64,000 bases of DNA from an uncultured bacterium (lineage in GTDB: Bacteria > Patescibacteriota > JACMRA01), in contig OY969926.1 of the NCBI GenBank assembly GCA_963704645.1, positions 1,124,491 through 1,188,490 on the forward strand, written 5' to 3'. Positions within the stretch are counted from its first letter, which is position 1; each line of letters opens with the position of its first letter. Below, one piece after another: positions 6,737-64,000 of the stretch. A model generated the notes under the pieces. The model had not been told where the DNA came from. It searched no databases and worked only from the letters and a program-made list of their open reading frames with translations. The position numbers and the translations under genes are program-made.

Positions 6737-6865
6737 TGGGTAAATGAAGGGAAAGGAGGGGAGGTAAAGGACAAACCACCAATCGTAACTTCCTCGTTTC
6801 CTCACCCCCCCACACACCCAAACTACCCCCAAGCCTTTGGCTTGACCCCTTCGGGCAAACATGTC

Positions 6866-8392: not shown

Positions 8393-8489
8393 ATTTTAAT
8401 GTGAGATGGTAAGTGGGAAATGTAAAGAGTTGCTTTGGAAGATTAATTTGAAAGTTTATTAAGCCTAGACAAATGAGTACTGTCACCCT

Positions 8490-13467: not shown

Positions 13468-13483
13468 TTCCCCCAACAACAAA

Positions 13484-13507
13484 GGCGATGATTAACATCG
13501 CCCCTAC
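13484..13507 (-). repeat. GTAG-hairpin (REP-like) unit GTAGGGGCGATG-TTAAT-CATCGCC between convergent genes; probably also a terminator
   Basis: 7-bp stem at 13484-13490 / 13496-13502. The complement of GTAGG lies at 13503-13507. A T-run follows on the + strand. Confidence 0.6.
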
Positions 13508-31377: not shown

Positions 31378-31455
31378 GGGTATGTAGCTCAGCCTGGTTA
31401 GAGCACAGATCTTATAAGTCTGCGGTCGGTGGTTCAAATCCACCCATACCCACCA
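31378..31455 (+). tRNA. tRNA-Ile with anticodon UAU, CCA encoded
   Basis: Cloverleaf folded by hand. Acceptor GGGTATG/CATACCC. D arm GCTC..GAGC. Anticodon stem CAGAT/GTCTG with loop CTTATAA. T arm GGTGG-TTCAAAT-CCACC. Discriminator A followed by CCA. Confidence 0.9.
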
Positions 31456-32425: not shown

Positions 32426-32461
32426 GGTAGTGGAGACCTCCTGGTTTCCATAAATTTTAAT

Positions 32462-35119: not shown

Positions 35120-35247
35120 AATTCACAATGTAGGGGCGAACCCCGCGTCGCCCTTCGCACATTATAATCCAAAATATTCTCTCATAATTACCATTCGGAG
35201 GGATTTATCCTCCTGTGCTGTGGGAATTTACCTACACGTCGTGAATT
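35120..35247. repeat. REPIN-like doublet (128 bp) with inverted termini AATTCAC-N3-GTAGG / CCTAC-N5-GTGAATT
   Basis: The left unit GTAGGGGCGA-ACCCCGCG-TCGCCC (35130-35153) faces an inverted GTAGG unit (35231-35235). An internal hairpin GGAGG(G)AT-TT-ATCCTCC lies at about 35198-35214. Confidence 0.55.
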
Positions 35248-36030: not shown

Positions 36031-36083
36031 CCCTAACCTCACCAACCGGCGTGGAGTTAGGGATTATTTTTTTGGGCGAAAAT
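36031..36083 (+). terminator. terminator-like element, paralogous to 38309-38361
   Basis: CCCTAAC...GTTAGGG stem followed by a T7 run and GGGCGAAAAT. About 80% identical to the second copy. Confidence 0.55.
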
Positions 36084-36360
36084 TGTTTGAATTATTTAAA
36101 ATATTTTTGCTGATCAGCTATTAGGGCAATTGTTTATACAAGTTTATTAAATAAATTTTAAAGCAAACCCCGAACCATATCAACTACCACCGTAGGGAAA
36201 TACTTGCCATTCTCAATTCCCCAATTCCCCATTGTAATAACCATTCCCAATCACCATCTCATTGTAAGATAAAGTTTCATTTTTACATTTTGAGAAAATT
36301 TGTTTGACGACGCCTCCATTATATTCTGTAATGAAGTGTTTTTGTAGAAAGGAGCAGTTT

Positions 36361-36825
36361 ATGGCAAAAGGTTGGCATTTGGAGGATGAAACACTATTTA
36401 TATATAAATTATGTAGAGGTAACCCAACTCAAGATGAGACTTATTATGTATCGCAAAGCCTGTCTAAAGTTAGTCAAGCATTGGCAGGTTCTGCAGATGG
36501 GGAAATCTACGCTCTAATTACAAGTCAAAATTGTAATGGTGATTTACAACTAGCGCACTTGTGCTATTGCTACATTTGCAACAAAAGTGTACATCACGGC
36601 GAAACATGGGAAAGATTTGCCCAAGATTTTTACGAAAGCTACAGAAACCACAGCTTGTTTTCATTGGTATGGGAAAACTATACTATTTATGACAATGAAG
36701 AAGTTGATGAAATCTTAGCTAGTATCTGCGAGGAAGTCCTCTTCAGCATGATACTTCTCTATGGAACAGCAGATCAATTTCCAATGTATTGGAAAGAAAG
36801 AGAATGGAGAATGCTGTTTGTTTAA
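36361..36825 (+). CDS. hypothetical Cys-rich protein (154 aa)
   Basis: The ATG at 36361 is preceded by AGGAG. The ORF-track TTG start at 36304 is less likely. Confidence 0.6.
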   Translation: MAKGWHLEDETLFIYKLCRGNPTQDETYYVSQSLSKVSQALAGSADGEIYALITSQNCNGDLQLAHLCYCYICNKSVHHGETWERFAQDFYESYRNHSLFSLVWENYTIYDNEEVDEILASICEEVLFSMILLYGTADQFPMYWKEREWRMLFV

Positions 36826-36969
36826 ATTGAATAAAATATAATACCGCTTTTAGAAATCTTTAAGCGGTACTTTTTTATGCAGTCTTTTATAAAACAAAAA
36901 TTATTAAATAGCATGTTTTATTCATCAAAAGAAAATAGCACCTAAGAATAACACTTAGGCACTATGGTT

Positions 36970-37125
36970 TTAAGCACGTCTCGATCGACGCATTAAAACT
37001 TTTTGATCCCTGGTAAAATGGAGATTTATTCCACTTCCATTTCGCAAGTCTTCTCGGACTTTGCTATGAGCGTCCGCAACAACTTCCTCAGTTGTTTCTT
37101 GCGATGCTAATAATATAGCACTCAT
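36970..37125 (-). CDS. possible small protein (51 aa)
   Basis: The internal ATG at 37125 is preceded by AGGAG. The longer 95-aa version is hydrophobic and looks spurious. Confidence 0.35.
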   Translation of the reverse strand: MSAILLASQETTEEVVADAHSKVREDLRNGSGINLHFTRDQKVLMRRSRRA

Positions 37126-37268
37126 AATTCTTCTCCTGTTGTATTTCAATATAGATAGAATACTAGATAATCTAAAGTTACATAAAAAGCTAATTGTCAA
37201 TAGTAAAAGTGTAAATATATTGTCTGTTATTATTACTGTTCCAACTTTAATTAACACCCAAGGCTAGT

Positions 37269-37676
37269 CTAAATTTCCAAATAATTTTTATAGGTTTTAA
37301 CTAATAATTTATCAAAACTAACTAATTCCAAACTATTTTGTAGGCAAACTTGTAAATACAAACTGTCTTCAAAAGATAAATTTTCTTTATTAAAAGTATT
37401 TAAAACTTTTTTAAAATCTAGCTGTTTAGGCTGTAAAATTTCAACAATTCCCAGATCTAAAAATTCCTGGAATGCTTCTACAATTTCCTGTTTAGAAAAT
37501 TCATAATGTGTAGTAAGAACATATTTTAATTCAATTAAAGTTTCCGGTAGAATAAATAACTTATATTCTTGCCTTACAGCTTTTTCAAACAATAAATTTA
37601 CTTCAGCTTGCTGACTTTCAACGTCCCCAATTAAAAATCTGGCGATTATATTTGTATCTAACAAAACTTTAATCAT
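37269..37676 (-). CDS. vapC: PIN-domain toxin (VapC-like)
   Basis: MIKVLLDTNIIARFL with a conserved Asp. The ATG at 37676 overlaps the antitoxin stop by 8 nt. An acidic residue (SFEDSL) is present. Confidence 0.85.
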   Translation of the reverse strand: MIKVLLDTNIIARFLIGDVESQQAEVNLLFEKAVRQEYKLFILPETLIELKYVLTTHYEFSKQEIVEAFQEFLDLGIVEILQPKQLDFKKVLNTFNKENLSFEDSLYLQVCLQNSLELVSFDKLLVKTYKNYLEI

Positions 37677-37953
37677 ATTTTTGGTTTTTAAAACTATCAG
37701 TTTTTGACCTCTCCAAAGCAGCTTCAAACTCTTCACCAGTTTCAAACATTTTGTTTTTGTTTTTAAGCTTTCTACCTAAACTTCCCTGTATTTTAGACAT
37801 TTTATTTTCTATATTTTGAATATTGTAAGTATCCTGTTTTTGACCATCTTCAAAAATATGCAAATACATTCCTGGTTTTAAATCTAATTTATTCAATAAA
37901 TCTACTGGCAAAGTAACTTGATTCTGTGATGAAACTTTTAGTTTAAAGGTCAT
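37669..37953 (-). CDS. AbrB/MazE/SpoVT-type antitoxin (VapB-like)
   Basis: SSQNQVTLPVDLLNKLDLKPG is a swapped-hairpin beta-barrel motif. It lies upstream of the PIN gene and overlaps it. Confidence 0.8.
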   Translation of the reverse strand: MTFKLKVSSQNQVTLPVDLLNKLDLKPGMYLHIFEDGQKQDTYNIQNIENKMSKIQGSLGRKLKNKNKMFETGEEFEAALERSKTDSFKNQKYD

Positions 37954-38092
37954 AGTAAAGTTATTTTAAATAACTAAAATTATAATGTCAAAGTAAAAAA
38001 TAGTTACTTAGACATGTATGAAATTAGTTTTGACTTTTCTTATATTTTGTGTATTAGTAAGTGTAAGTGCTAGCTGTGTTTAGGAGACAGTT

Positions 38093-38290
38093 ATGTCGTT
38101 TTTTTATGTTGCAACTGGTAGGACAATTACAGTCATCACAGTTAGTAGATTTCTTTGGCCCATCGGATGCGAGGAGAAGCCTAGTTATGGCATAAGTCAT
38201 ACTCACTCAAAACTTCTTCAAGAACAACGAAAGGAGAGGTGGCGTAGGAAACAAAGGACACTTGCAATACGTCTTTCTTGGAAATACTAA
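38093..38290 (+). CDS. small basic hypothetical protein (65 aa)
   Basis: AGGAGA lies 5 nt before the ATG. It is followed by the conserved terminator-like element. Confidence 0.4.
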   Translation: MSFFYVATGRTITVITVSRFLWPIGCEEKPSYGISHTHSKLLQEQRKERWRRKQRTLAIRLSWKY

Positions 38291-38308
38291 GTTTAACTAT
38301 TTGTCCAT

Positions 38309-38361
38309 CCCTAACTTCACCAATCAACGTTGGATTTAGGGATAATTTTTTTGGCCAAAAT
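38309..38361 (+). terminator. terminator-like element, paralogous to 36031-36083
   Basis: CCCTAAC...TTTAGGGA stem plus a T7 run and GGCCAAAAT. Confidence 0.55.
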
Positions 38362-38370
38362 CACCACCTA

Positions 38371-39699
38371 CTACAACAACTCATTCCCAACTTTATCTTC
38401 TAAAGTAACCTGGTTCCACAAAGTTCCTCTATCAAAAGTAAAAACATTTGGGTCCGCTTTAATATCTGTTAATTTTAGGGGAACGGTTAAATGCACACCA
38501 GCCATTGTTCTGCAACGGCTAAAAGCTACATAGGTTTGGCCAAAAATAAAAGCTCCCCTACCCATGTTAATAATACAATTATCAAAGGTTTGCCCCTGCG
38601 ATTTATGAATGGTTACGGCCCAAGCCAATTTTAAGGGATATTGCACAAAACTGCCTACTGTTTTCTTTACTGTTTCCAACTTCTCTTCATCATATTCATA
38701 CTTATAGGCTTCCCAAGTAGAAAGTTCTACTTCTACCAATTTTGAGTTTTTAGAATTTAAACGAATTAAGACTGTGTCTTTTTGAAGCTCTTCCACCACT
38801 CCAATTGTACCATTTACCCAACGTCTTTCTGGGTCATTTTTAATAAACATTACTTGAGCCCCAATTTTTAGGTTTAAATATTTTTCAGTGGGATAAAGCT
38901 CTTCCCCGAAGCTTCCTGTAATTACGGCTTTGTAGCTAAATTCTTCAGCACTTAGTTTTTCCAATTCATCAAAATTTATATTGGCAGCATCTTTGTTTAT
39001 AGTTGTAATAGTAATTGGTAAAGTTTCTTGCGGAACATTTTTGCCAACAAATTTAGTATTCACCCAAGAAATTAAGCTTGCATTGGCCACGCCGTAACGT
39101 AAATAATTTAATAATTTTATGAACTCGGCTTCACTTTGGCGGTAATTGTGTTCAAGTTTTATATATTTCAAATGCAAATCTGCAAAACATTTAGCCCCAA
39201 AAAAATATTCACTATTATAGCGACTTGAAAACTGCTCTTTTTCCTCCCGACGTAAAACTGGGGGAAGTTGAAAATGATCACCAAACAAAATTAATTGAAC
39301 ACCGCCAAAAGGTAATCTTGGCTTTTCTTTGTTCAACCTGAAAAACTTATCTAGCAAATCTAGCATGTCACTTCTAACCATGGAAATTTCATCAATAACC
39401 AAAATATCTATAGCTTTCACCCTGCGGTTATCACGAAGTTTATGAACTTTCCCCTCTTCCAAAAGTTGCCAAGCCGGATCAGTGCTTAATCTACAAAAAC
39501 TGTGAATTGTTTCCCCACCAACATTAATTGCAGCCATGCCAGTAGGTGCCAAAATTGCAACTTTTTGTTTTACTTCGTCTAAAAAATGTTTTAAAAGCGT
39601 GCTTTTACCTGTTCCAGCATCTCCTGTAATGTACAAATTATGCCGTGTTTTAAGCATTAATTCTAAAGCAAGCGTTGCAATTTTATTATCTTTAAACAT
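38371..39699 (-). CDS. Pif1-family (SF1B, RecD-like) DNA helicase
   Basis: Motif I GDAGTGKST, Ia LAPTGMAA, II VIDEISM, III GGVQLILFGDHFQLPPV, IV NYRQ, V TIHKSQGQT, VI YVAFSR. Confidence 0.9.
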   Translation of the reverse strand: MFKDNKIATLALELMLKTRHNLYITGDAGTGKSTLLKHFLDEVKQKVAILAPTGMAAINVGGETIHSFCRLSTDPAWQLLEEGKVHKLRDNRRVKAIDILVIDEISMVRSDMLDLLDKFFRLNKEKPRLPFGGVQLILFGDHFQLPPVLRREEKEQFSSRYNSEYFFGAKCFADLHLKYIKLEHNYRQSEAEFIKLLNYLRYGVANASLISWVNTKFVGKNVPQETLPITITTINKDAANINFDELEKLSAEEFSYKAVITGSFGEELYPTEKYLNLKIGAQVMFIKNDPERRWVNGTIGVVEELQKDTVLIRLNSKNSKLVEVELSTWEAYKYEYDEEKLETVKKTVGSFVQYPLKLAWAVTIHKSQGQTFDNCIINMGRGAFIFGQTYVAFSRCRTMAGVHLTVPLKLTDIKADPNVFTFDRGTLWNQVTLEDKVGNELL

Positions 39700-39703
39700 T
39701 GGT

Positions 39704-40414
39704 TCAAGTATTTATAAAACCAAGTTTGTTGGCAATGGGAGCTCTTGGATTTAAAATATCTAGTTTCCAACTTCCAGGATTATTAAATATATACTCCCGA
39801 ATTCTGGAAAGGTCTGCGTCATTCCGAATAACTCGTTCATAAAAAGATTTCTGCCAAAATGAAGGAAAACTCGTAGGGGAACGCTTGCCGTTCCCGTGAT
39901 ACTTAATATTTCGATAGACTTTATTCTCATCAACCATGCTAATTTCGTTGCTTGTTAAAATTCTATACTCTTTATGGAACCGCAAGGGTTCCCCTACAAA
40001 TTGCTTATTTATATGATACCATGATATTGATTTAAATTTGGATATTATATCCGATAAATTTGTTTCCTGTGTTGTTATTTTAGAAATTGGTTTATCTAAA
40101 AATGTCATGATTCCATGAATATGATTGGGCATAATTACAAAATCCTCCATTATTATGTTTTCAAATATGTCAGATAAACTTAGCCAAATATCAATAACAA
40201 TAGAACCAATTTCCGTAGGGACGAATTTTAATTCGCGTTGGGGCACTCCCAAGACAGGAGAAACAAGTTTCTCCCCTACGCCGTGATTTATAAAATTAAC
40301 TACCTCCCCAAAAATACATCTTTTGTCTTGCACACATATTGTTATGAAGAAAGAATTATTGTTTGAATAAATGTTTTTATCTGGGAATCTTATTTTCTTA
40401 CGGTTGTTGCTCAT
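39704..40414 (-). CDS. HUH/Y1 transposase of the IS200-like / REP-associated tyrosine transposase (RAYT) type
   Basis: HUH motif in VIMPNHIHGIM. C-terminal block FWQKSFYERVIRNDADLSRIREYIFNNP. Two extra segments are encoded by GTAG-hairpin doublets. Confidence 0.8.
   Translation of the reverse strand: MSNNRKKIRFPDKNIYSNNNSFFITICVQDKRCIFGEVVNFINHGVGEKLVSPVLGVPQRELKFVPTEIGSIVIDIWLSLSDIFENIIMEDFVIMPNHIHGIMTFLDKPISKITTQETNLSDIISKFKSISWYHINKQFVGEPLRFHKEYRILTSNEISMVDENKVYRNIKYHGNGKRSPTSFPSFWQKSFYERVIRNDADLSRIREYIFNNPGSWKLDILNPRAPIANKLGFINT
39873..39997. repeat. REPIN-like inverted doublet inside the RAYT ORF
   Basis: GTAGGGGAACG-CTTGC-CGTTCCC (39873-39895, + orientation) faces GTAGGGGAACC-CTTGC-GGTTCC (39997-39976, - orientation). 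Confidence 0.65.
40215..40279. repeat. second GTAG-hairpin inverted doublet inside the RAYT ORF
   Basis: GTAGGGACGAATT-TT-AATTCG (40215-40235, +) faces GTAGGGGAGAAAC-TT-GTTTCTCC (40279-40257, -). Confidence 0.55.
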
Positions 40415-40583
40415 CCCTTAAACCCAACATAATTTTTCTAGCTAAACAATATAAAGTTTGGGTTATTGGTTGGACTAACTCATAAAATAGCAAAATTCTT
40501 AATTTTCTTGGGAATTATTGCCTTGCCAGAAGGCTTTTTTTATGCTAATTTTAAATTAGATTTAGTAGTATTTGCGAGGAAAA

Positions 40584-42148: not shown

Positions 42149-42170
42149 GTAGAGGCGAGCCCGTCTCGCC
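42149..42170 (+). repeat. GTAG-hairpin (REP-like) unit GTAGAGGCGAG-CCCGT-CTCGCC
   Basis: 6-bp GC stem at 42154-42159 / 42165-42170. Confidence 0.6.
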
Positions 42171-45769: not shown

Positions 45770-47308
45770 TTATGTTGTCACTGGCAGGGGTTTGTAATAA
45801 TTAGCGAAATAATTTTCATCTTTCCCTTGATTAACAGCTTTACTACTTACAAAACTGAATAAAATTATTAAAGCCATTGGCCACAAATGCATGTCATTTT
45901 TTTCTAAATTTATCACTGTTAAAGGTTTTTTAACTTCATTTGTCTGGATATTCGCTTGTGGAAAATTTTGATAATCAAGAGTTGAATTGATAATCGCATC
46001 AGTTTTAAAGTATTGTGATTTTACGACATCTACCGATTGCCTTGGTTGCAAATTACTTGATAAATTTGGTGGTAGTTTTATCAGCTCCTTTGAGGACTTA
46101 ATATACACATCTATGTTAGATAGTTTTGTTTCTAAGCTTGGCGAAACTAAACTAGGCTGATTAATTTTAACTTTTTCATGGAAACTTTGTTGAACAACTG
46201 GAAGTGAGTTTTTTGGAACTGAAATAGCTTGACTAATTTCTTTATTTTGGTAGTTTTGACTCGGAGCAACACTCGGAGCAACACTCGGAGCAACACTCGG
46301 AGCAACACTCGGAGCAACACTCGGAGCAACACTCGGAGCAACACTCGGAGCAACACTCGGAGCAACACTCGGAGCAACACTCGGAGCAACACTCGGAGCA
46401 ACACTCGGAGCAACACTCGGAGCAACACTCGGAGCAACACTCGGAGCAACACTCGGAGCAACACTCGGAGCAACACTCGGAGCAACACTCGGAGCAACAC
46501 TCGGAGCAACACTCGGAGCAACACTCGGAGCAACACTCGGAGCAACACTCGGAGCAACACTCGGAGCAACACTCGGAGCAACACTCGGAGCAACACTCGG
46601 AGCAACACTCGGAGCAACACTCGGAGCAACACTCGGAGCAACTTGAGTTTGTAAATCAGAATTATCTAAATTAACAGCTAAAGCACTTCCAAATTTGGGT
46701 GTGCCATAATTACCTGAAAAATATTCTTCATTGGAAATTTCGTATTTTAAAGTTGACGGGTTGTATTGAACACTAAACTTACTTCCATAAGCTAAATCGA
46801 CATCTTTTTCTAAATTTTTTATTTTATCTTCATTTAAACTAAACTCAGAAACTTTTTGCCCTGCAGAGTTAATTAAACTAGCTTGTATATTTCTCTGGCC
46901 TACAGTATTAGAACTTACTCTTAAAACTTTACCACTAACGCCGTCTGCTTCTATGTTAGCACTAGCAAGAGTTGAAATTAAACCATTATAACGATTTCGA
47001 ACCAGGTAGTTGCTCTTAGCCTGAATGAAAGTATTGGGTGGAAATTTAAGGTTGTTAGTTGCTTCCTGAGACTGGTGAAACCGAAGTTGCCACAAGCCCA
47101 CATCTATTGCCTTGTTATTAGGGTTTGTAATTTCAATCCACTTGTCATAGCTGCATAGTTTACAATTAGACCTAGTGCTTCCAGCGAAATTAACTTCACT
47201 AATATAAACATTTTCTTCGGCTAAACTTATTACAGAAAAAACTGGCAAAAACCAAACTGACATTAAGCTTAAGCTGAAAAAAACAATGTAAATATATCTG
47301 CAGGGCAT
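45770..47308 (-). CDS. secreted lamin-tail-domain (LTD) protein with a (VAPS)x32 linker and a C-terminal TM segment
   Basis: LTD block VYISEVNFAGS...YDKWIEITNPNNKAIDVGLWQLRF. Tandem tetrapeptide array. C-terminal hydrophobic segment LWPMALIILFSFVSS. Confidence 0.8.
   Translation of the reverse strand: MPCRYIYIVFFSLSLMSVWFLPVFSVISLAEENVYISEVNFAGSTRSNCKLCSYDKWIEITNPNNKAIDVGLWQLRFHQSQEATNNLKFPPNTFIQAKSNYLVRNRYNGLISTLASANIEADGVSGKVLRVSSNTVGQRNIQASLINSAGQKVSEFSLNEDKIKNLEKDVDLAYGSKFSVQYNPSTLKYEISNEEYFSGNYGTPKFGSALAVNLDNSDLQTQVAPSVAPSVAPSVAPSVAPSVAPSVAPSVAPSVAPSVAPSVAPSVAPSVAPSVAPSVAPSVAPSVAPSVAPSVAPSVAPSVAPSVAPSVAPSVAPSVAPSVAPSVAPSVAPSVAPSVAPSVAPSVAPSQNYQNKEISQAISVPKNSLPVVQQSFHEKVKINQPSLVSPSLETKLSNIDVYIKSSKELIKLPPNLSSNLQPRQSVDVVKSQYFKTDAIINSTLDYQNFPQANIQTNEVKKPLTVINLEKNDMHLWPMALIILFSFVSSKAVNQGKDENYFANYYKPLPVTT
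46259..46642. repeat. perfect tandem repeat, 32 x 12 bp (ACTCGGAGCAAC)
   Basis: Counted directly. 384 bp with no variant unit. It stays in frame within CDS 45770-47308. Confidence 0.95.
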
Positions 47309-54320: not shown

Positions 54321-54357
54321 CTGTCACTGAAATTTATGACATATACAAAGGTGACAG
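54321..54357 (-). repeat. solo copy of the IS481-like element left end
   Basis: 37 nt that are the reverse complement of 8480-8516 with one mismatch. Similarity stops on both sides. Confidence 0.8.
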
Positions 54358-54660
54358 CCTCCAAGTTTGGGGTGACAAGTAGCGGTTCGAGCCATTCACG
54401 TGTAAATACAGTATTGCGTTTAAACTTTAGGGATATGTTGTGAGGGTATGCTTACCGTAAATATAATCTTAAAACTTAGTTATCCACAGTCTTTCGTTGT
54501 TTTGTAGGATTTAAAAAATAAGCTTGGTTATACAGGCTTTTCATTTGGTAAAACCAAGTTACTTTGACTTTTGCTGTTTAATGCATTAGAATAAGCTACA
54601 TTAAAGTAATGGTAGCGTAAATTACTACCTACTTCTAAAACAAAAACAAATATTGCTGTA

Positions 54661-57600
54661 ATGTTTTTTAAAAAAATTAAAAGCTTTGATTGGAAAAAAA
54701 CTTTTAATAGAATATTTAAATCCAAGAATAAACCTTCTTCTAAGGATGTTTATTTTGTTTCTAAAAAACAATCCACTAACCCTAATTTGAAAAATAGATT
54801 AAAATTTTTTATAGTAAAATATAGGTGGATAATTATTTTTGTTGCTGCAGTAATTGTTATAGGAACAATAGCTAACGCTGTTTTGCAATATCAAAGAATA
54901 GCTAAAGCAAACGCACCTACTATTACCTCTATCACACCCAATTCTAGTTCTATACTTGGTGGAGCAGAGGTTACTATTAATGGAACTAACTTTTCCCAGG
55001 GTGGACCCCAAAGAATTATTACAATTACAAATCCAGGAAGTACAATTACTAACTATGAGGGTAACTTTAATTTAGATACAGCAAGTTTGATAAGTGCGAA
55101 TAAATTAAGATCTGATTGTGGTGATATAAGAATTAAAGATTCTGATGGAAATACCGATTTAAACTATTGGATTGATGGACAATGTAATTCTAGTTCAACT
55201 GTTGTTTGGTTTAAGAAACCCAGCCTTCCAACTGGAAATAGCACTGTGGTTTTAAAGTACAACAACCCAAGTTTAACCAGCCTTAGTAATATTGCTAATT
55301 TTAGTTTTGGAAGTGTTTTAGCTGGAACCAATAACAAACTTTGGTTAAGTGCTAATAATATTACAACATCTACGGCTTTTACGCCTAGTTTTGAAAATGT
55401 GGATGGGGTAACAGTTAACGGAGGAGATTTAAGCAATACTGGAACTGCCAATAGCTGGATTAATGGAGCAACCTCTGTTCAAAGCATTAGCAGCGGCAAT
55501 GGCTATGTATCAAGCACTATTCTAGAAAATAACACTTACAGAATGTTTGGTTTGTCTAAGGGAAATAGTAATTCAAGTTATACAGATATTGATTTTGCCA
55601 TGTACCCAGCTAACGACGGAAATATATACGTCTACGAAGGTGGTAGTGGTATTACAAGTTTAGGGACTTATTCAAACGGCGATGTATTAAGTGTGGAGGC
55701 TAGTGGAGATAAAATTTTATATAAGAAAAATGGAATTACTCTTTATGTAAGCGGGGCTACTTTGACATCAAATAGTTACCCATTACTTTTTGACAGTTCT
55801 TTATATTCAGCTGGTGCCACTTTGAAAGATGTGAAAATTTGTATTGGTATTTGTGATGGATCTAGCATACAAACTTGGAATGACAGAAGTGGAAATGGAA
55901 ATAATGCTACTCAAACTACAGTCGCAAATAGGCCGCAAATAAAAACCAATATTCAGAATGGAAAGCCTGCGATTCAGTTTGACGGAAATAATGACAGGAT
56001 GCAATTTACTCCGCTGACACTTTCTAGTGATAACGCCTTTTACACTGCATTTACCCCTAGGCCAAGCTCTGACACGTATGGAGCTGTTTTTTCTGAAAAT
56101 AATATTAGAGGTTTTTACTATCGTGGATCAACCAGATTAATGAGTTATTATTATAGTTCTTCTGATCACCATAATACAACACCAATAATAGAAAATTTGG
56201 CCAATGTTTATGGTTCAAATAGTGTTTTTGGAAATGTAGCATATTACCTTAACGGATCAAGCAATGGTACAAGCTCTGCATCTACTGGTTTTAGTGCTGA
56301 TACTATTGGTGATGATGATTCTAGCGAAACATTTAAGGGTGATATACTGGAATTATTTTCATTTAACGCTTCTTTACCTGAGCAAGATCGTCAAAGTGTA
56401 GAAACTTATCTAAACTCAAAATATAATCTTTATGGCACAAACCCAACGCTAAGTATTGCCAGTGAAAGCATTACAACAGCATCTATTAGTTTTGGTGGAA
56501 ATGTTGGAACTAATCTGCAATATATTTCCCCTACACAGGTTAAAATTACAGTCCCAGCTTCTACATTACCTGGTAATAAAAATGGCTCTGTAGACGTTGT
56601 TCTTGTTAACCCCGACGGTAGTAGTGTTACTTTAACTAATGGATTTAGTTATGGCGATCCAATTATCACTTCTATCACTCCAAACAGTGGAAATACACTT
56701 GGAGGGTATGAAGTAACAATAAATGGAACAAATTTTGCGAAAAGTGGAATAGAAAGAGCAGTTGCAATAAATAATCCTGGATTAAGCATTAATAACTATG
56801 AAGGAAAATTAACCTTAGACACCGCAAGCCTTATAACTGCAGGGAAATTAAGATCTGATTGCGGGGATATTAGAATTAAAGATAACAATGGAACTACAGA
56901 CCTAGGTTATTGGTTAGAAAGTGGATGTAATACTTCTAGCACTATAATTTGGTTTAAAAAAACTAGCCTACCAAACGGTAGTAGTAATATTTACTTGAAG
57001 TATGGCCTGCCTGAATTAACCAGTCAAAGTAATATTTCTAATGTATCTTTTGCTTCTGTATTGGCGGGTAGCAATGTAAAGTTTAGAATGAGTGCTGAAA
57101 ATGCCTTAACTGCCACTGAATTTACACCATCTTTTACCGATATTGTTGGTACTTCTGTTAACAATGGTACAATTGCAAGCACGGCTAGTACTGGCTGGGG
57201 TAATAGTGGACTTATTTCTAGTCAAACTATAGACTCTGGAAATGGTTATGTTTCAGCAAAATTGATCGACACCAATTCTGAAAGAATGTTTGGACTAGCA
57301 AAAAATAATACATCTGCACATTACAATGATATTGACTTTGCCATATACCCTTCTTCAGATGGTAATTTAAGGGTGTATGAGTCAGGAAACTTTATAACTA
57401 GCATAGGAACTTACACAGCTAACGATATTTTAAGTGTTGAGGCTACTGGCGATAAAATTGTTTACAAGAAAAATGGCCTTGTTTTATATACAAGTTCAAT
57501 TACTTTAACCTCAGCTAATTATCCATTAACCCTAGATACTTCACTTTATAATACAGGTTCAACATTAAGCGACATTAAAATGTGTGTTGGAATTTGTAAT

Positions 57601-60600
57601 TTATCTAGCATTCAGACACTTACTGACATTTCATCGAACGCTAATAATGCCACTCAAAATACTGCGGGCAGCAGACCTACAATATACTCAAGTGCGTTTA
57701 GTGGAAAACCAGCAATTCGTTTTGATGGTGTAAATGATACTTTATACCTATCAAATAACGCGGCAGTTGCTCAATATATAACAGTTTTTAAATCAAATGT
57801 AGCTAATTTCAACAATTATGGATCGGTTTTAGAAAATGTTTCAGGCGGTAGAATGGGTCTTTTTGAACCTGGAACAAACCAATTTCACGGCGGCCCATAT
57901 CCTTTAGCTGTAAGAAAAAATGGTACAAGTTTAACCTCACCATTTAATCTTGGAGGTATTACATTACCAATGGTTATGACACTAAACACTGCCAACCCTA
58001 TTAGTGTGAGACCAATGCAACTTGGAGCAATGGAAAACAGCTATTTTGCCAACATAGACATTGCCGAAATAATTGCCTTTGGAACTGCAAATAGTAATTC
58101 TGAAGTTCAGTCTTTAGAGAATTATTTAAATTTAAAATATAATATCTCAAGTACAAACCCTACACTTACCATTGGCTCTGAATCTGGCAATGCTGGAAAT
58201 GGAGGCCTAACTTTTGGAGGAAACTCTGCAACAAATATTCAATACATTTCTTCTGCCGAAATTAAAGCAAAAGTTCCAGCATCATCATTGCCAGGCAGTA
58301 AAAGTGGTTCTGTAGATGTAGTATTTACCAATCCTAATGGAATTAGTACCACTTTAATCAATGGTTTTAGTTATTTATCGCCAAGTATTTCTTCTATTAC
58401 ACCAAATTCCAGTGCCACACTTGGAGGAATAGAGGTAACTATAAACGGAGCAAATTTTGCCAATAGTGGCTATAAAAAACTTTTAACCATTACAAATTCT
58501 GGTGGCAGTGCTAGTAATGTTAAAACTTCTGTTTTGGTAGATACAGCAAGTTTAATTTCTGCAGGAAAAATGCGTAATGATTGCGGCGATCTTCGTATAA
58601 AAAATAATGATGAAAGCATAAATTTGAATTATTGGATAGAACAAGGTTGCAACACTAGCTCTACTTTAATTCACATTTCCATACCAAGTTTATCTGTGGG
58701 AGAAAATATCTTTTACTTGAAATATGGCGACTCTGTGCTTGTTTCTGAAAGTAGCAGAGACGCTGTATATCCTGTTTTTGCAACAAATTCTAGTTCTTTA
58801 AAACAATGGATAAAGTCTACAGACGGTACCAGTACCACAACAAACGGAGCTACTGTAACCAGTATTGAAGATAAATCTGGAAATAATAATAATTGGAGTG
58901 TTCAAAGTGGTTATTCTGGTGCAACTTATAATCCAACCGGGTTGAACGGTAAACCAAGCTTGTCTTTCAATGGTTCAAACAGTTACCAGTTTACAAATAG
59001 GTTAACTGATATTCGTACTGTGATAATGTTTTGGAACGAGACAGCTGCAGGAAGCGGATCTGGTTCGTTTATACTTGGAGATACCAGTAGTTACGACTTC
59101 CATAGAAGTGGAAATAATTATCTTGCAAACTGTTACAATTCTTATGTTTGCAATGGAACTTTTAGAATAAACGGCACAGGTGTAGCGCCAACTTCAGCTC
59201 AAGCAGTTTATAATTCTCCTGTAATTTTATCTATAATTACAAATGGTGGCACTGCGGCGGCCAATACATTTGATAAAGATAGAACATATCATGGTCCGTT
59301 TATTGGTCAATTTGGTGAGAGTATGATATTTAACCAGTCACTTTCAGTTGATGATGTTGCAAGTTTGGAACAATATATTAGTGCAAAATATAGCTTAAAC
59401 AGCACTTACAATTTGGTCTTAGGAGGTGAATCTGGAAGCGGAAACGGAAGTATTAGCTTTGGAGGAAACCCTGCAACTAATATTCAATTTATTTCATCAA
59501 ATCAGCTTAAAGCTACTGTGCCAGCTTCTACACTAAGTGGAAATAAAACTGGCTCTGTTGATGTAACAGTTACCAACCCTGATGGAAGCAATGGAACTTT
59601 CAGCAATGGTTTTACTTATGTAGCCCCAGTTGTAACAAGTATTTCTCCAAATAGTGGGCCAAATATAGGTGGAACTTTTGTAACTATTTCTGGTAGTAAT
59701 TTTAGCAACCTTAGAAGTGCAGGTGCATTAATTTCAAGACAAATTACAATTACAAACCCTGGTAGTACAATTACAAATTATGAAGGAAACGTTACTTTAG
59801 ATACAGCTTCATTAATATCAGCAAATAAATTAAGAAGTGATTGTGGAGATATTAGAGTAAAAGATTCTGATGGAAATACAGATTTAAACTATTGGATAGA
59901 TGGAGATTGCAATAGCGCCAACACTGTTATTTGGTTTAAGAAGCCTAGCCTTTTAGCAGATAATAATACTGTAATTTTAAAGTATGGAGATTCAAATTTA
60001 ACTACTCAAAGTAATATAAATAATTTTAGTTTTGGTTCAGTTTTAACTTCAACAAATAATAAGCTTTGGGTAAGTGCAAACTCTGGCGTAGGAACTTCAA
60101 TTGATGGAGGAGCTATTTCAAGTTGGATGGATAGAAGTGGAAATGGAAATAATGCAACCCAAATTACAACAACTAACCAACCGACACTTAGAAATAAAGT
60201 TCAAAATGGAAAACCTGCAGTTAGATTTGATGGTGTAAATGACTCAATTACTTTTGGAGATCTGGAAATTTCAAACACAAAAAACATCAGTTTCATTACA
60301 GTTTTCAAAACACCAAGAATTCGACAGTATGATGGTATTTTTACTAAAAGTTATTCGGCTTATGGGGCTTATTTAGGTGGAGATTACGCTGGAAATAGTG
60401 GAAAAGTTGAATTCTTTGTTGATTCTAGTAGGCCTGGAGGGGCTTTTGCGCTTTCAAATTCTGCTTTAAACAATAATTTAGGGAATTTAGTAATTGGAAC
60501 GTACGATGGTAATTTGGCAAATGAAAATTTAAAAATGTTTGTAAACGGAAGTCAACAGACAAAAACTGGTAACAGTACTGTAAATATTCCAGATTCATCA

Positions 60601-63600
60601 GACAAATTGACTTTAGGTGCTGAAGAAGGCTCCTCATCTTCTGGGTATAATTTAGAAGGTGATATTATCGAAAGCTTGGCTTTTAATAGCACCCTGTCTG
60701 ATACTGATCGTCAGAATCTTGAAACTTATTTAAATACTAAATATAATCTTTATAACACAACAACTCTTCCCACTGCAGCTTTAGACAGTGCCGAGACAAA
60801 TTTCTCAATTAGCATAAATGGTAATAATTTAGATAACGCCAAGTTTATTTCATCAACTAGTTTGACAGGCTATGTTCCAGCTGGAACAGGAACGCAAAGT
60901 GTAACAGTAACAAACTCAGATGGCACAAACGGAACTCTTTCAAATGGTTTTACCTATGGTGTAAACGGTGTACCAAATCCAATTTTTGATCTTGCCATTA
61001 ACAATACGCAAAACGAAAGTGTGCCACTGGCTTGGACAGCACCTTCTAATAATGGGTCGGCAATTACCGATTATATAATAAAATATAGTACAGACAACTT
61101 CGCTACTGAAACAATAGTAAATGATGGGGTAAACGCGAATACAAACTATACAATAACTGGTTTAACACCTGGGACTAGTTATAAATTTAAAGTAATTTCA
61201 GTGAATGGAATTGGAAATAGTATTGATTCAAATGTGGTTACCCTATCAAGTTTTGACTGCGATACCAACCTAAATGGAGCTGATTTTACACCTGCAAATG
61301 GTGCAACTTTAACTGGGCGTTATTGTAACATTGGCACTTTTACAATTTCTAGTGGGTTTACTGTAAGTACTGCAGTAGAGTCAAAAGTTAAAATCTATGC
61401 TCAAAATGCAAATATATTGGGAACACTAAGCGCCAACTCCAAAGGTTTCCTAGGGGGATTGCAAACAGGTAATGCTTCAGGCAACGGTTTAGGTGCTGGA
61501 GGTGGAGTTTATGCTGGAAATGGAGGTGCTGGAGGTGGCTATGGTGGAAATGGTGGAAGATATAGTAATGCTTCTGGCGGTATTGCTTATGGTTCTATAA
61601 CAGAACCTACAGATCTTGGAAGTGGTGGTTCAACTTATGGAAATTCTATAAGCTATCCTGGTGGAAATGGTGGAGGATCTATTAAATTAAATATTACAAA
61701 TACTTTAACTAATAATGGAAGTATTGCTGTAAATGGAGATAATTCTGCAAGTTATGGTGGTGGTGGAAGTGGAGGTAGTATCTGGATTACTAGTAATACT
61801 TTAGCTGGTACTGGTACTTTAACTGCCAATGGAGGAAATAATCCAAGTGGTTCCAACGGTGGTGGAAGCGGTGGTAGAATTGCTTTATACTATAACACTA
61901 AGACTTTATCTGGAAGTGTAAGTGCTATTGGCGGAACTGGAGGACAAAATGGTGGAGCTGGAACTGTCTATGAGAAAGTAAGCTCTCAAACATACGGAAG
62001 CCTAAAGATAGATAATGGTAACATAAGTGGATCCGATAGCGCAGCAACAATAATTAATTCAAGTTACCTAGTTTTAAACTCACTAGATAATCTTATTGTT
62101 ACTAATAAAGCCAATGCTGCTTTAAATAAAGATTTAACGATTATAAATACAAGTTTAGATATTAATGTTGGAACAACTTTTACAGTTAACAACACCCTAA
62201 CTTCAAATAACCTTTCAACGCTAACCAACTCTGGAACTTTCAATTTTTCAACCACGGGTAATTGGATAAGCAATAGTCTTTCAAGCGTTACAATTTCAGG
62301 GCTTTTAACCCTAAATACTTACATGCTTCCAACTATAAACACTGTCACTATTGAAAGTGGTGGCAACTTAACATCAAGCCAAAATACTACATTAGCCAAC
62401 ACCCCATATAAAAAAATTGATCTAAATATCAATAACCTAACTGTTAATAGTGGTGGGCAAATTCAAACCAACTCCAAAGGTTTCCTAGGGGGATTGCAAA
62501 CAGGTAATGCTTCAGGCAACGGTTTAGGTGCTGGAGGTGGAGTTTATGCTGGAAATGGAGGTGCTGGAGGTGGCTATGGTGGAAATGGTGGAAGATATAG
62601 TAATGCTTCTGGCGGTATTGCTTATGGTTCTATAACAGAACCTACAGATCTTGGAAGTGGTGGTTCAACTTATGGAAATTCTATAAGCTATCCTGGTGGA
62701 AATGGTGGAGGATCTATTAAATTAAATATTACAAATACTTTAACTAATAATGGAAGTATTGCTGTAAATGGAGATAATTCTGCAAGTTATGGTGGTGGTG
62801 GAAGTGGAGGTAGTATCTGGATTACTAGTAATACTTTAGCTGGTACTGGTACTTTAACTGCCAATGGAGGAAATAATCCAAGTGGTTCCAACGGTGGTGG
62901 AAGCGGTGGTAGAATTGCTTTATACTATAACACTAAGACTTTATCTGGAAGTGTAAGTGCTATTGGCGGAACTGGAGGACAAAATGGTGGAGCTGGAACT
63001 GTCTATGAGAAAGTTGGAAATGATGAATTTGGAAGTCTTACAATTAGCAGTAGTGGAACATTGGGTGCAGCCACTGAGATTAATAATACTTTTTATCCGG
63101 TCAACACTTTTAAAAATCTAACTGTTACTACAGGGTCAGTTTTAATTCAAAATAAAGCTTTAACTTTACAAAATATTGTATTTACTATTCCTACAAATTC
63201 ATATTTTTACCAAGACCAGCCCCTAACCTATACAAATATCCTTTCTGATATTAACATTTCAGGTTATTGGGAATCTAAATCTAGCCCTACAAATACCTCT
63301 CAAGCCAATCTAAATGTAAATAGTGGTGGAAACTTAACTACAAGCCAAAACACCACAGATGCAGCAAATTTAAATTACAAAATAGATTTAACTTTCAATA
63401 ACATTACTGTTAGCAGCGGGGGTCAAATTCAAACTAATGAGAAAGGTTTTCAAGGAGGATATAATGGAAACACTTCATTTTCAGGATATGGACCAGGTGG
63501 AGGTGTTACTGCTTCAAGCAACGGTGGAGGAGGAGGTGGCTATGGTGGAACAGGAGGCAAGTTCAATGTTACAACTGGTGGAAGCACATATGGTTCCATT

Positions 63601-64000
63601 AGCGAGCCATCTGACCTGGGAAGCGGCGGAGCTACATATTCATTTACTTCTTCGTATCCAGGTGGGAATGGTGGAGGGGCAATTAAATTAAGCGCTAATG
63701 CAACTTTTACAAACAATGGTACAATTTCTGCAAATGGGGGAAATTCTCCAAACTATGGTGGTGGTGGAAGTGGTGGAAGTATCTGGATTACTAGTAACAC
63801 TTTAGCTGGAACAGGAAATACAACTGCCAATGGAGGAAATAATACAAGCGGTTCCAATGGCGGAGGAGGAGGTGGTAGAATTGCTTTATACTATAACAAC
63901 AAGACTTTATCTGGGATTGTAACTGCAAATGGAGGGACTGGACAGCAAAATGGTGGAGCTGGGACTATTTACGAACCAAATACACCTCAAACTGGTTTGA
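54661..64000 (+). CDS. giant surface protein, 3' end outside window (>3,110 aa): [IPT/TIG - DUF2341-like - jelly-roll - LamG - IPT] x4, FN3, then Gly-rich beta-solenoid repeats
   Basis: Absent from the ORF track but open in frame 1 from ATG 54661 (TAG at 54613-54615 upstream) to the last base. I checked the frame at 56641, 59620 and 61432. N-terminal TM WIIIFVAAVIVIGTIANAVL. Modules start at about 54913, 56656, 58378 and 59620. DUF2341-like CGDIRIKDSDGNTDLNYWI. LamG-like W.DRSGNGNNATQ...GKPAI.FDG. FN3 at about 60975-61250. Confidence 0.9.
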   Translation, partial: MFFKKIKSFDWKKTFNRIFKSKNKPSSKDVYFVSKKQSTNPNLKNRLKFFIVKYRWIIIFVAAVIVIGTIANAVLQYQRIAKANAPTITSITPNSSSILGGAEVTINGTNFSQGGPQRIITITNPGSTITNYEGNFNLDTASLISANKLRSDCGDIRIKDSDGNTDLNYWIDGQCNSSSTVVWFKKPSLPTGNSTVVLKYNNPSLTSLSNIANFSFGSVLAGTNNKLWLSANNITTSTAFTPSFENVDGVTVNGGDLSNTGTANSWINGATSVQSISSGNGYVSSTILENNTYRMFGLSKGNSNSSYTDIDFAMYPANDGNIYVYEGGSGITSLGTYSNGDVLSVEASGDKILYKKNGITLYVSGATLTSNSYPLLFDSSLYSAGATLKDVKICIGICDGSSIQTWNDRSGNGNNATQTTVANRPQIKTNIQNGKPAIQFDGNNDRMQFTPLTLSSDNAFYTAFTPRPSSDTYGAVFSENNIRGFYYRGSTRLMSYYYSSSDHHNTTPIIENLANVYGSNSVFGNVAYYLNGSSNGTSSASTGFSADTIGDDDSSETFKGDILELFSFNASLPEQDRQSVETYLNSKYNLYGTNPTLSIASESITTASISFGGNVGTNLQYISPTQVKITVPASTLPGNKNGSVDVVLVNPDGSSVTLTNGFSYGDPIITSITPNSGNTLGGYEVTINGTNFAKSGIERAVAINNPGLSINNYEGKLTLDTASLITAGKLRSDCGDIRIKDNNGTTDLGYWLESGCNTSSTIIWFKKTSLPNGSSNIYLKYGLPELTSQSNISNVSFASVLAGSNVKFRMSAENALTATEFTPSFTDIVGTSVNNGTIASTASTGWGNSGLISSQTIDSGNGYVSAKLIDTNSERMFGLAKNNTSAHYNDIDFAIYPSSDGNLRVYESGNFITSIGTYTANDILSVEATGDKIVYKKNGLVLYTSSITLTSANYPLTLDTSLYNTGSTLSDIKMCVGICNLSSIQTLTDISSNANNATQNTAGSRPTIYSSAFSGKPAIRFDGVNDTLYLSNNAAVAQYITVFKSNVANFNNYGSVLENVSGGRMGLFEPGTNQFHGGPYPLAVRKNGTSLTSPFNLGGITLPMVMTLNTANPISVRPMQLGAMENSYFANIDIAEIIAFGTANSNSEVQSLENYLNLKYNISSTNPTLTIGSESGNAGNGGLTFGGNSATNIQYISSAEIKAKVPASSLPGSKSGSVDVVFTNPNGISTTLINGFSYLSPSISSITPNSSATLGGIEVTINGANFANSGYKKLLTITNSGGSASNVKTSVLVDTASLISAGKMRNDCGDLRIKNNDESINLNYWIEQGCNTSSTLIHISIPSLSVGENIFYLKYGDSVLVSESSRDAVYPVFATNSSSLKQWIKSTDGTSTTTNGATVTSIEDKSGNNNNWSVQSGYSGATYNPTGLNGKPSLSFNGSNSYQFTNRLTDIRTVIMFWNETAAGSGSGSFILGDTSSYDFHRSGNNYLANCYNSYVCNGTFRINGTGVAPTSAQAVYNSPVILSIITNGGTAAANTFDKDRTYHGPFIGQFGESMIFNQSLSVDDVASLEQYISAKYSLNSTYNLVLGGESGSGNGSISFGGNPATNIQFISSNQLKATVPASTLSGNKTGSVDVTVTNPDGSNGTFSNGFTYVAPVVTSISPNSGPNIGGTFVTISGSNFSNLRSAGALISRQITITNPGSTITNYEGNVTLDTASLISANKLRSDCGDIRVKDSDGNTDLNYWIDGDCNSANTVIWFKKPSLLADNNTVILKYGDSNLTTQSNINNFSFGSVLTSTNNKLWVSANSGVGTSIDGGAISSWMDRSGNGNNATQITTTNQPTLRNKVQNGKPAVRFDGVNDSITFGDLEISNTKNISFITVFKTPRIRQYDGIFTKSYSAYGAYLGGDYAGNSGKVEFFVDSSRPGGAFALSNSALNNNLGNLVIGTYDGNLANENLKMFVNGSQQTKTGNSTVNIPDSSDKLTLGAEEGSSSSGYNLEGDIIESLAFNSTLSDTDRQNLETYLNTKYNLYNTTTLPTAALDSAETNFSISINGNNLDNAKFISSTSLTGYVPAGTGTQSVTVTNSDGTNGTLSNGFTYGVNGVPNPIFDLAINNTQNESVPLAWTAPSNNGSAITDYIIKYSTDNFATETIVNDGVNANTNYTITGLTPGTSYKFKVISVNGIGNSIDSNVVTLSSFDCDTNLNGADFTPANGATLTGRYCNIGTFTISSGFTVSTAVESKVKIYAQNANILGTLSANSKGFLGGLQTGNASGNGLGAGGGVYAGNGGAGGGYGGNGGRYSNASGGIAYGSITEPTDLGSGGSTYGNSISYPGGNGGGSIKLNITNTLTNNGSIAVNGDNSASYGGGGSGGSIWITSNTLAGTGTLTANGGNNPSGSNGGGSGGRIALYYNTKTLSGSVSAIGGTGGQNGGAGTVYEKVSSQTYGSLKIDNGNISGSDSAATIINSSYLVLNSLDNLIVTNKANAALNKDLTIINTSLDINVGTTFTVNNTLTSNNLSTLTNSGTFNFSTTGNWISNSLSSVTISGLLTLNTYMLPTINTVTIESGGNLTSSQNTTLANTPYKKIDLNINNLTVNSGGQIQTNSKGFLGGLQTGNASGNGLGAGGGVYAGNGGAGGGYGGNGGRYSNASGGIAYGSITEPTDLGSGGSTYGNSISYPGGNGGGSIKLNITNTLTNNGSIAVNGDNSASYGGGGSGGSIWITSNTLAGTGTLTANGGNNPSGSNGGGSGGRIALYYNTKTLSGSVSAIGGTGGQNGGAGTVYEKVGNDEFGSLTISSSGTLGAATEINNTFYPVNTFKNLTVTTGSVLIQNKALTLQNIVFTIPTNSYFYQDQPLTYTNILSDINISGYWESKSSPTNTSQANLNVNSGGNLTTSQNTTDAANLNYKIDLTFNNITVSSGGQIQTNEKGFQGGYNGNTSFSGYGPGGGVTASSNGGGGGGYGGTGGKFNVTTGGSTYGSISEPSDLGSGGATYSFTSSYPGGNGGGAIKLSANATFTNNGTISANGGNSPNYGGGGSGGSIWITSNTLAGTGNTTANGGNNTSGSNGGGGGGRIALYYNNKTLSGIVTANGGTGQQNGGAGTIYEPNTPQTGL
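61433..61979 (+). repeat. 547-bp direct repeat, copy 1 (Gly-rich solenoid unit)
   Basis: Base-for-base identical to 62468-63014 by direct comparison. Confidence 0.95.
62468..63014 (+). repeat. 547-bp direct repeat, copy 2
   Basis: The offset of 1,035 bp (345 codons) keeps the frame. A diverged third unit starts near 63437. Confidence 0.95.

Follow-up and report, generated by a model that had tools for sequence, protein, structure and literature searches.

Does a transposase gene that lies four nucleotides ahead of a helicase gene act with it as one enzymatic unit, or do the two only happen to be neighbours? The question is raised by a 64,000-nt stretch of the genome of an uncultured bacterium of the Patescibacteriota (contig OY969926.1 of assembly GCA_963704645.1), here called the window. 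On its minus strand a gene of the REP-associated tyrosine transposase family (RAYT; REP, repetitive extragenic palindrome) is followed by a gene for a Pif1-type helicase of superfamily 1B (SF1B). A gap of 4 nt separates the TGA stop of the RAYT (39706-39704) from the ATG of the helicase (39699-39697), exactly as a preliminary description had it. That description took the pair for a split version of RepHel, the fused protein of eukaryotic Helitrons. If this were true, a conserved RAYT-Pif1 operon would be the first bacterial split analogue of RepHel and would provide a handle on the mobilisation of REPs and of REPINs (REP doublets forming hairpins). The comparative evidence points to an ordinary RAYT/REP system which abuts a housekeeping Pif1, and the locus is an unsuitable example of helicase-assisted REP transposition. 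We consider it probable, at roughly 0.7, that two separate functional units were joined by a lineage-specific rearrangement and that their tight spacing is a by-product.

The adjacency was surveyed at 87 helicase loci, 80 of them retrieved from metagenomes and 7 further ones from close relatives. In the metagenome set a RAYT-like open reading frame (ORF) was called with hidden Markov models (HMMs) at E<=1e-3; at least 800 nt of flank were present upstream in 68 and downstream in 64 of these loci. A RAYT lies beside the helicase in 0 of the 87 other helicase loci, including those with helicases 72-86% identical to that of the window. It is absent at L016/17 (72% identical helicase), at L097-L101 (73-80%) and at the 77 remaining, more distant loci (38-47%). 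L015, with an 86% identical helicase, has the 3' synteny of the window, the 5' neighbour of L007, and a RAYT on neither side. The only relatives with a RAYT beside the helicase are L007-L011 and L095-L096. There the RAYT is located on the 3' side of the helicase on the opposite strand, i.e., convergent, 34 nt from the helicase stop; in the window it stands in tandem on the 5' side. The helicases of L007 and L095 are 96% identical to each other, and the gene order acetate kinase, XFP, SSB, GTPase, helicase is common to the window, L007, L095 and L015.

The RAYT loci were compared as well. The RAYT of L001-L006 (P0003) is positioned between rpoB and the leucyl-tRNA synthetase (LeuRS) gene, and no Pif1 gene is present within 8-10 kb of the RAYTs of L001-L006 and L012-L014. 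A scan of reference genomes found distant RAYTs alone, in Mucilaginibacter, Pedobacter and a Clostridia metagenome-assembled genome. Because the 87 helicase loci and these other RAYT loci lack the pairing, the adjacency is confined to a narrow clade in which its geometry is not conserved. The survey of relatives suggested in the preliminary description thus found neighbours in L007-L011 and L095-L096, on the other side and convergent, and none in the remaining loci. The pair is no conserved operon, and the split RepHel module is not supported. A literature search for a RAYT-Pif1 association found no paper on it; the 10 hits listed were unrelated. Orthologs of the histidyl-tRNA synthetase (HisRS) gene were examined for a downstream RAYT as a possible donor of the RAYT flank of the window; none was present, and only the HisRS gene itself is conserved there. 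No single inversion converts the L007 arrangement into that of the window, since with respect to the synteny on the left the helicase points the same way in both.

How did the 4-nt gap arise? In L007 and L015 the 5' region of the helicase consists, in this order, of a 405-aa gene, its terminator hairpin (CCCCCTnTGGGGG followed by a T-run) and a 36-nt helicase leader. In the window, homology to this leader starts abruptly at TTGCCAAC (39735), 36 nt before the helicase ATG. The breakpoint falls exactly at the -35-like hexamer TTGCCA. The end of the RAYT carries the same junction. The RAYTs of relatives end in ...LNPKFP(C/S), that of the window reads ...LNPRAP and continues with IANKLGFINT. Its last 10 codons and the TGA stop (39704-39706) are helicase leader sequence: the leader of L015 matches the 10-residue tail at 9/10 positions (90%), though L015 has no RAYT. 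The TGA of the window is TGG in L007 and L015, and it is the sole TGA among the stops of 34 long ORFs of the window. Read-through of this TGA would take the RAYT ORF to a TAA at 39692-39694, an 8-nt overlap with the helicase ATG.

The gap is so short because the RAYT ORF runs into the conserved promoter/leader of the helicase at the synteny breakpoint. Judged from these alignments, the best reading of the spacing is that it came about incidentally, through a breakpoint within the helicase promoter, and did not evolve as a device for coupling. The locus would then clearly illustrate how such a breakpoint can bring two genes almost into contact. A scan for promoters and terminators detected no terminator between RAYT and helicase in the window, so transcription of the RAYT probably continues into the helicase gene. 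The helicase itself is probably transcribed from a promoter of its own, as a leaderless mRNA. Of the coupling that had been deduced from the 4-nt spacing, co-transcription is thus likely, and an evolved coupling is not what the junction indicates. The loss of a GGAA Shine-Dalgarno-like motif ahead of the helicase ATG was considered as a sign of translational coupling and rejected: the genome does not use Shine-Dalgarno motifs, therefore the loss is uninformative on this point.

The helicase has all the attributes of a bacterial Pif1. It scores 98.7 bits against Pfam PIF1 (PF05970; cut-off 25.9) and 24.7 bits against Pif1_2B_dom (PF21530). The translation contains GDAGTGKS, DEISMV, the Pif1 signature region (DKFFRLNKEKPRLPFGGVQLILFGDHFQLPPV) and TIHKSQGQTFD, which bears out the full SF1B motif set reported earlier. 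The best solved relatives are 8BNV (1e-102), the Bacteroides Pif1 5FTB (3e-77) and the Thermus Pif1 6S3E (6e-73). With the bacterial Pif1 structures (8BNV/8BNS, Bacteroides 5FTB/5FHD, Thermus oshimai 6S3E) the protein is colinear over nearly its full length at 1e-102 to 1e-72, and no notable difference from them is apparent. To the Helitron transposase Helraiser the match is no more than partial (1e-14). The helicase is 87% identical to its L007 and L095 orthologs at the amino acid and 80% at the nucleotide level. Named relatives of both the helicase and the neighbouring HisRS are SR1, Gracilibacteria and 'Patescibacteria group' bacteria. This is an ordinary Pif1 without specialisation, under housekeeping-like constraint, and its casting as the helicase half of a RepHel is not supported. 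The L015 helicase has a single in-frame TAA in place of Glu183 (E183*, L015:854-856); either the allele is a pseudogene with a nonsense change or the sequence is in error there, and nothing about the genetic code follows from it.

The likeness to Helitron RepHel (Helraiser, 7LCC) and to the TraI/TrwC relaxase-helicases is one of enzyme classes, an HUH nuclease together with an SF1B Pif1/RecD-like helicase. Those proteins are single fused polypeptides with a Y2 Rep or relaxase HUH domain, whereas the genes of the window are separate and the HUH domain is of the Y1 type. The pair is neither fused nor arranged in a conserved co-oriented operon, and the adjacency flips its orientation.

The two genes differ profoundly in their evolution. 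The ratio of nonsynonymous to synonymous substitution rates (dN/dS) is 0.05-0.08 for the helicase, 0.086 for HisRS, 0.064 for the GTPase and 0.16-0.25 for the RAYT core, all approximate values as dS is near saturation; the RAYT figure indicates purifying selection. Identity to relatives is 87% for the helicase and 48-60% for the RAYT. Between L007 and L095 the RAYTs are 55% identical, the helicases 96%. The ends of the L007 and L095 RAYT genes are orthologous (86-88% at the nucleotide level) and the centre has been replaced. A second RAYT paralog, P0002, is present on the same 1.27 Mb contig as the RAYT of the window (P0001). The two share about 135 identical central residues and differ in the N-terminal insert and the C-terminal tail. 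In a second, independent assembly of this strain the sequence breaks off within the RAYT gene. The RAYT is a recently duplicated or converted mosaic gene, the helicase a stable core gene. In L095/L096 the RAYT beside the helicase (L095:9773-10456) has Tyr in place of the first HUH histidine (PNYFHG); this copy may be catalytically impaired.

These figures bear on the proposal that both genes belong to one mobile element, be it IS200/IS605-like, Helitron-like or a phage or plasmid remnant, with the helicase as passenger or partner. An HUH enzyme and a helicase are a common mobile-element gene pair, and a separate IS3-type element is present elsewhere in the window. Yet divergence is unequal, the helicase holds a conserved syntenic position in four genome types, the neighbours are housekeeping genes, and neither element ends nor a tnpB were found. 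A phage or plasmid origin of the helicase in particular was rejected: its neighbours are chromosomal, and no homolog from a phage or plasmid exceeds 41% identity. The single-element proposal is already contradicted and we give it hardly any credence.

What kind of RAYT is involved? The ORF translation contains MPNHIHGI and FWQKSFYERVIRND...EYIFNNP. Against the curated models the protein remains below the cut-offs, with 18.8 bits for Pfam Y1_Tnp (PF01797; cut-off 23) and 49.3 bits for NCBIfam REP_Tyr_transpos (NF047646; cut-off 80, E=4.6e-13). Two in-frame inserts break up these alignments, and the sub-threshold score is a scoring convention, not a biochemical feature. Hence, of the HMM checks proposed in the preliminary description only that for PIF1 was positive, and the family of the transposase was established by profile and fold. 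A profile built from 37 homologs retrieved a single PDB match, the Escherichia coli TnpA_REP structure 4ER8 (E=6e-9). The AlphaFold2 model has a mean predicted local distance difference test score (pLDDT) of 78 and exceeds 90 in the core. In a Foldseek search the top 29 PDB matches were all Y1 HUH transposases, 4ER8 among them. The homologs P0003 and P0004 are annotated as RayT by JGI.

In TnpA_REP the roles of H59/H61, of the catalytic Y115 and of the metal-ligand N119 are established (PMC3479197). The RAYT of the window resembles it in the Y1 HUH fold, in the HUH histidines, and in Y208 and N212, the counterparts of Y115 and N119; the HUH motif and the C-terminal YIFNNP block named at the outset are therefore real. 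H100 is invariant in both family alignments, A4 and A5 (the latter with 37 homologs); H98 shows no variation in A5 and hardly any in A4. Y208 and N212 are invariant in both. A single conserved Tyr in the family marks the HUH domain as Y1. With HUH, Y208, N212, a modelled Y1 fold and a constrained core the gene looks intact. Differences from TnpA_REP are evident, too. The E. coli protein has 165 aa, that of the window 236 aa as a result of two REP-encoded in-frame inserts; the C-terminal tail is swapped for helicase-leader sequence, and the Pfam and NCBIfam scores are below cut-off. RAYTs are usually described as single genes; here, two paralogs exist per genome.

The IS200/IS605 transposases (IS608, ISDra2) share the Y1 HUH fold and are the top structural matches beside 4ER8, yet in sequence the RAYT of the window is nearer to TnpA_REP than to the IS200 model. 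The bounding end hairpins and the tnpB of those elements were not found here. No IS200/IS605-type ends are common to the three RAYT loci compared, no tnpB-like ORF exists among the ORFs of the window, and homology extends from about 62 nt before the ATG to the stop, i.e., the conserved unit is the ORF plus about 62 nt upstream.

The window is rich in REPs. Nine GTAG-hairpins were observed compared with a mean of 0.5 (maximum 3) in 40 Markov-2 controls, and the heptamer GTAGGGG occurs 11 times where about 2 are expected. The dispersed GTAG-hairpins noticed in the preliminary description are thus a genuine REP family associated with the RAYT. Copies of the GTAGGGG-hairpin share the tag and vary in the stem; an example is GTAGGGGAACGCTTGCCGTTCCC. 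The hairpins at 6714, 13483, 32427 and 35130 are directly downstream of genes. Three of the nine lie inside the RAYT ORF. In the window and in L001, L007 and L095, GTAGGGG-hairpins are concentrated within the RAYT genes and close to them. Family membership is judged by GTAG-tagged REPs near the gene, within about 1 kb (PMC6006769), and the RAYT of the window has them. In this enrichment and clustering it resembles E. coli TnpA_REP with its REPs and bacterial interspersed mosaic elements (BIMEs). It differs from TnpA_REP-type systems in that the REPs are inside the ORF and a flanking REP pair is missing. A Patescibacteria-like bacterium whose genome is small (1.27 Mb) and low in GC is thus shown to have a RAYT system with GTAG-REPs.

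The REPs inside the ORF form two modules. In module 1 residues of about 45-59 are modelled with a pLDDT of about 60, and the paralog P0002 lacks most of this module. Module 2, with one hairpin on the minus strand (39976-39997) and one on the plus strand (39873-39895), has a pLDDT below 50 over residues 145-182. In-frame REP modules recur at the same two positions in other RAYTs, near the N-terminus and between the HUH and Tyr motifs; the REP-bearing stretches in relatives are L001:8118-8790, L007:8139-8470 and L095:9900-10330. The L001 RAYT has a longer element (...VGEKLVSP...ELKFAPT..., about 107-131 nt) at both insert positions and a further GTAGGGG-hairpin REP near the C-terminal end. The L007 and L095 RAYTs contain other REP variants, one of them inverted in L095. 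Variants, lengths and orientations differ among the orthologs. Evidently, a RAYT gene can accommodate in-frame REPs in two of its loops, and its evolution is that of a mosaic. GTAG REPs lying in frame within genes have been described, as have Rickettsia palindromic elements (RPEs), in both cases palindromic repeats that leave the gene intact (PMC3733652); here the host gene is the RAYT itself and the positions are two recurrent ones. The papers searched for REPs inside RAYT genes contained no report of them.

Such insertions may also be taken as damage, i.e., the RAYT of the window might be an inactive relic, crippled by its REPs and by having its C-terminus fused to the helicase leader. The two modules, the foreign 10-residue tail, the atypical TGA stop and the scores below curated HMM cut-offs point in this direction. 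So does the L095 ortholog, which lacks the first His of the HUH motif (PNYFHG). In E. coli TnpA_REP the C-terminal residue E161 contributes to the active site, and a changed tail could matter (PMC3479197). Against this stand the intact ORF with HUH, Y208 and N212 in place, inserts confined to low-confidence loops outside the confidently modelled core, purifying selection on that core (dN/dS 0.16-0.25) and the retention of in-frame inserts in several genomes. We regard a relic as unlikely.

Common descent together with local movement would account for the recurrence of a RAYT beside this helicase, and so would a hot spot. According to the latter, hairpins and GTAG motifs at the helicase flanks would attract RAYT/REP events repeatedly without a functional link. 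The elements are at hand: an upstream terminator hairpin, a duplicated downstream terminator-like hairpin and a GTAG to which the helicase stop codon contributes; in L007 a GTAGGGG site at the junction with the RAYT includes this stop codon. The breakpoint of the window lies directly past the terminator-hairpin position of L007/L015, the hairpin at 38309-38354 marks the place where L007 and L095 carry their RAYT, and GTAGGGG hairpins cluster in and around RAYT genes in general. The GTPase-helicase spacer differs in three close genomes, with a toxin-antitoxin module and the duplicated hairpin in the window, a RAYT in L007/L095 and other sequence in L015. On the other hand, two configurations are all that was observed, a thin sample for recurrence, neither a target-site signature nor the ends of an element could be defined, and the REPs of the window RAYT are internal without a flanking pair. 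A hot spot is a possible but rather doubtful explanation.

In this spacer the window has a specific insert of about 2.2 kb (36112-38308) between two CCCTAAC..GTTAGGG hairpin copies (36031-36111 and 38309-38354). Its cargo is a 173-aa ORF and a PIN/MazE-type toxin-antitoxin pair (37269-37953). At this site L007 has one hairpin copy followed by the RAYT, and L015 a fragment of the antitoxin region.

Several observations weigh against two units joined by accident. A RAYT lies 4-34 nt from the same helicase in three genome types and two configurations; amid short synteny blocks such recurrence exceeds a naive chance model. HUH enzymes need single-stranded DNA, which makes a 5'->3' helicase a plausible helper. 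Co-transcription of RAYT and helicase is likely in the window, where no terminator separates them. Of the two paralogs of the source genome the comparison of RAYT contexts covered the one in the window, and the dN/dS values, with dS near saturation, are approximate. The first three points would suit a lineage-specific partnership, a trans-acting counterpart of RepHel, in which selection keeps RAYT and Pif1 neighbours through frequent rearrangement (tandem in the window, convergent in L007-L011 and L095-L096). Pif1 would unwind DNA, expose the GTAGGGG-hairpins and supply them single-stranded to the RAYT, whose gene would be a preferred in-frame landing site of its own REPs. The logic of an HUH nuclease with an SF1B helicase is established for Helitrons and relaxases.

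However, the genomes differ in the relative orientation of the two genes, and genes that converge cannot form an operon. No RAYT is present at L015, with its 86% identical helicase, or at the 86 other helicase loci, and P0003 adjoins LeuRS with no Pif1 near. The helicase, an ordinary Pif1 under housekeeping constraint, is unspecialised, the spacing is accounted for by the junction inside its promoter, and none of the 10 papers listed by the literature search dealt with the association. A partnership is therefore quite improbable. The grounds on which its proponents would have abandoned it were an adjacency conserved in no relative, a lost catalytic Tyr or a helicase left behind by a phage or plasmid. 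By these grounds the idea is not formally dead: a loose, lineage-specific link is possible because some relatives share the neighbourhood, the Tyr (Y208) is present on alignment and the helicase is no phage or plasmid remnant.

The joining of two independent units, the reading we prefer, can be put as a sequence of events. By analogy with E. coli TnpA_REP the RAYT would be a single-strand DNA endonuclease/transposase that binds GTAG(GGG)-tagged hairpins (REPs) on single-stranded DNA and cleaves and rejoins them through Y208 and an HUH/N212 metal site. Its gene is a fast-evolving mosaic into which REP modules were inserted in frame in two surface loops. The helicase is the conserved chromosomal Pif1 5'->3' helicase of the lineage, with a housekeeping-like evolution and probably its own promoter. 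A rearrangement or insertion, presumably associated with the RAYT/REP system, would have had its breakpoint at the -35 hexamer of the helicase and joined the genes. The RAYT thereby would have lost its native stop, located in relatives 1-2 codons after ...LNPKFP, and would now read 10 codons through the helicase leader to a new TGA stop which probably arose by a TGG->TGA change. Expression of the helicase would be independent of RAYT read-through. The coordinates are compiled in Table 1.

Table 1. Positions of genes, motifs, repeats and junction features in the window
Feature	Position	Strand	Basis or remark
RAYT-type Y1 HUH transposase/nuclease gene (236 aa)	39704..40414	-	ORF, family profile and fold
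RAYT 5' upstream region	40415..40476	-	conserved among RAYT loci of three different genomic contexts; blastn and alignment with L001 and L007
In-frame GTAG-hairpin module 1	40214..40280	-	CGTAGGGGAGAAAC..GTTTCTCC ... GCGAATT..AATTCGTCCCTACG; about residues 45-67
HUH motif codons H98-I99-H100	40115..40123	-	aligned with H59-M60-H61 of E. coli TnpA_REP 4ER8
In-frame REPIN-like module 2	39873..39997	-	two inverted GTAGGGGAAC-hairpins between HUH and Tyr motifs
Catalytic Tyr codon Y208 (EYIFNNP)	39791..39793	-	aligned with Y115 of 4ER8
N212 codon	39779-39781	-	aligned with N119 of 4ER8 (EYIFNNP vs DYIYINP)
Synteny breakpoint	39735/39736		alignment; directly past terminator-hairpin position of L007/L015
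Conserved helicase promoter/leader	39700..39735	-	alignment with L007 and L015, promoter scan
-35-like TTGCCA	39730-39735	-	promoter scan
-10-like AATACT	39707-39712	-	promoter scan; 17-nt spacer from TTGCCA, ends 7 nt before ATG
Stand-alone bacterial Pif1-family SF1B helicase gene (442 aa)	38371..39699	-	Pfam, PDB relatives and orthologs
Walker A GDAGTGKS of helicase	39601-39624	-	direct reading
Terminator-like hairpin (CCCTAAC..GTTAGGG and T-run)	38309..38354	+	abuts helicase 3' end; second copy of 36031-36111 element
GTAG-hairpin	6714-6737	+	dispersed copy
GTAG-hairpin	13483-13507	-	dispersed copy
GTAG-hairpin	32427-32450	+	dispersed copy
Intergenic GTAG-hairpin (REP)	35130..35155	+	example of dispersed copy
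GTAG-hairpin	42149-42167	+	dispersed copy

The window has a GC content of 34%. The chromosomal neighbours of the gene pair are HisRS, RelA/SpoT, a GTPase, SSB, XFP phosphoketolase, acetate kinase, RadA, Nramp and the PIN/MazE-type toxin-antitoxin pair.

The use of stop codons in this clade is peculiar. In the window together with L001, L007, L095, L102, L099, L097, L101 and L017 a TGA terminates 2/101 long ORFs (TAA 53, TAG 46), compared with 22% in unrelated loci. In-frame TGA was not found once in about 14,650 codons of real genes, including ORFs of 1,948 aa and >3,100 aa. Genetic code 4 or 25, which would remove the TGA stop of the RAYT, was rejected by this absence. SR1/Gracilibacteria read UGA as Gly. 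The near-absence of TGA suggests a weak or lost function of release factor 2 (RF2) in relatives of these bacteria, and a clade with almost no TGA bears on the origin of UGA reassignment in them.

Signals for translation initiation are unusual as well. Shine-Dalgarno motifs precede 4/33 long ORFs of the window compared with a background of 10%, i.e., they are not used. In many genes an A/T box resembling a -10 element precedes the ATG by 5-10 nt, a pattern which suggests widespread leaderless mRNAs in the source genome.

A few features are unrelated to the gene pair. An IS3-family integrase gene with rve domains (8579-9556) is bounded by inverted repeats of about 31-37 nt at 8480-8520 and 9539-9569, and a 97% copy of the IS3 end sequence is present 45 kb off at 54321-54357. 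A perfect 12-nt tandem repeat of >30 copies (46151-46700) is located in a 512-aa ORF (45770-47308) with a Lamin-tail domain and a PT repeat. A frame without stops extends over >3,100 codons (54616-63999) to beyond the end of the window. It contains internal repeats of about 1.0-1.7 kb and probably encodes a giant surface protein with repeats; L007, L095 and L102 encode similar giants of 2,000-2,900 aa (Big_9/cadherin-like). The sole tRNA gene of the window is a tRNA-Ile with the anticodon TAT (31378-31455), which is uncommon in bacteria.

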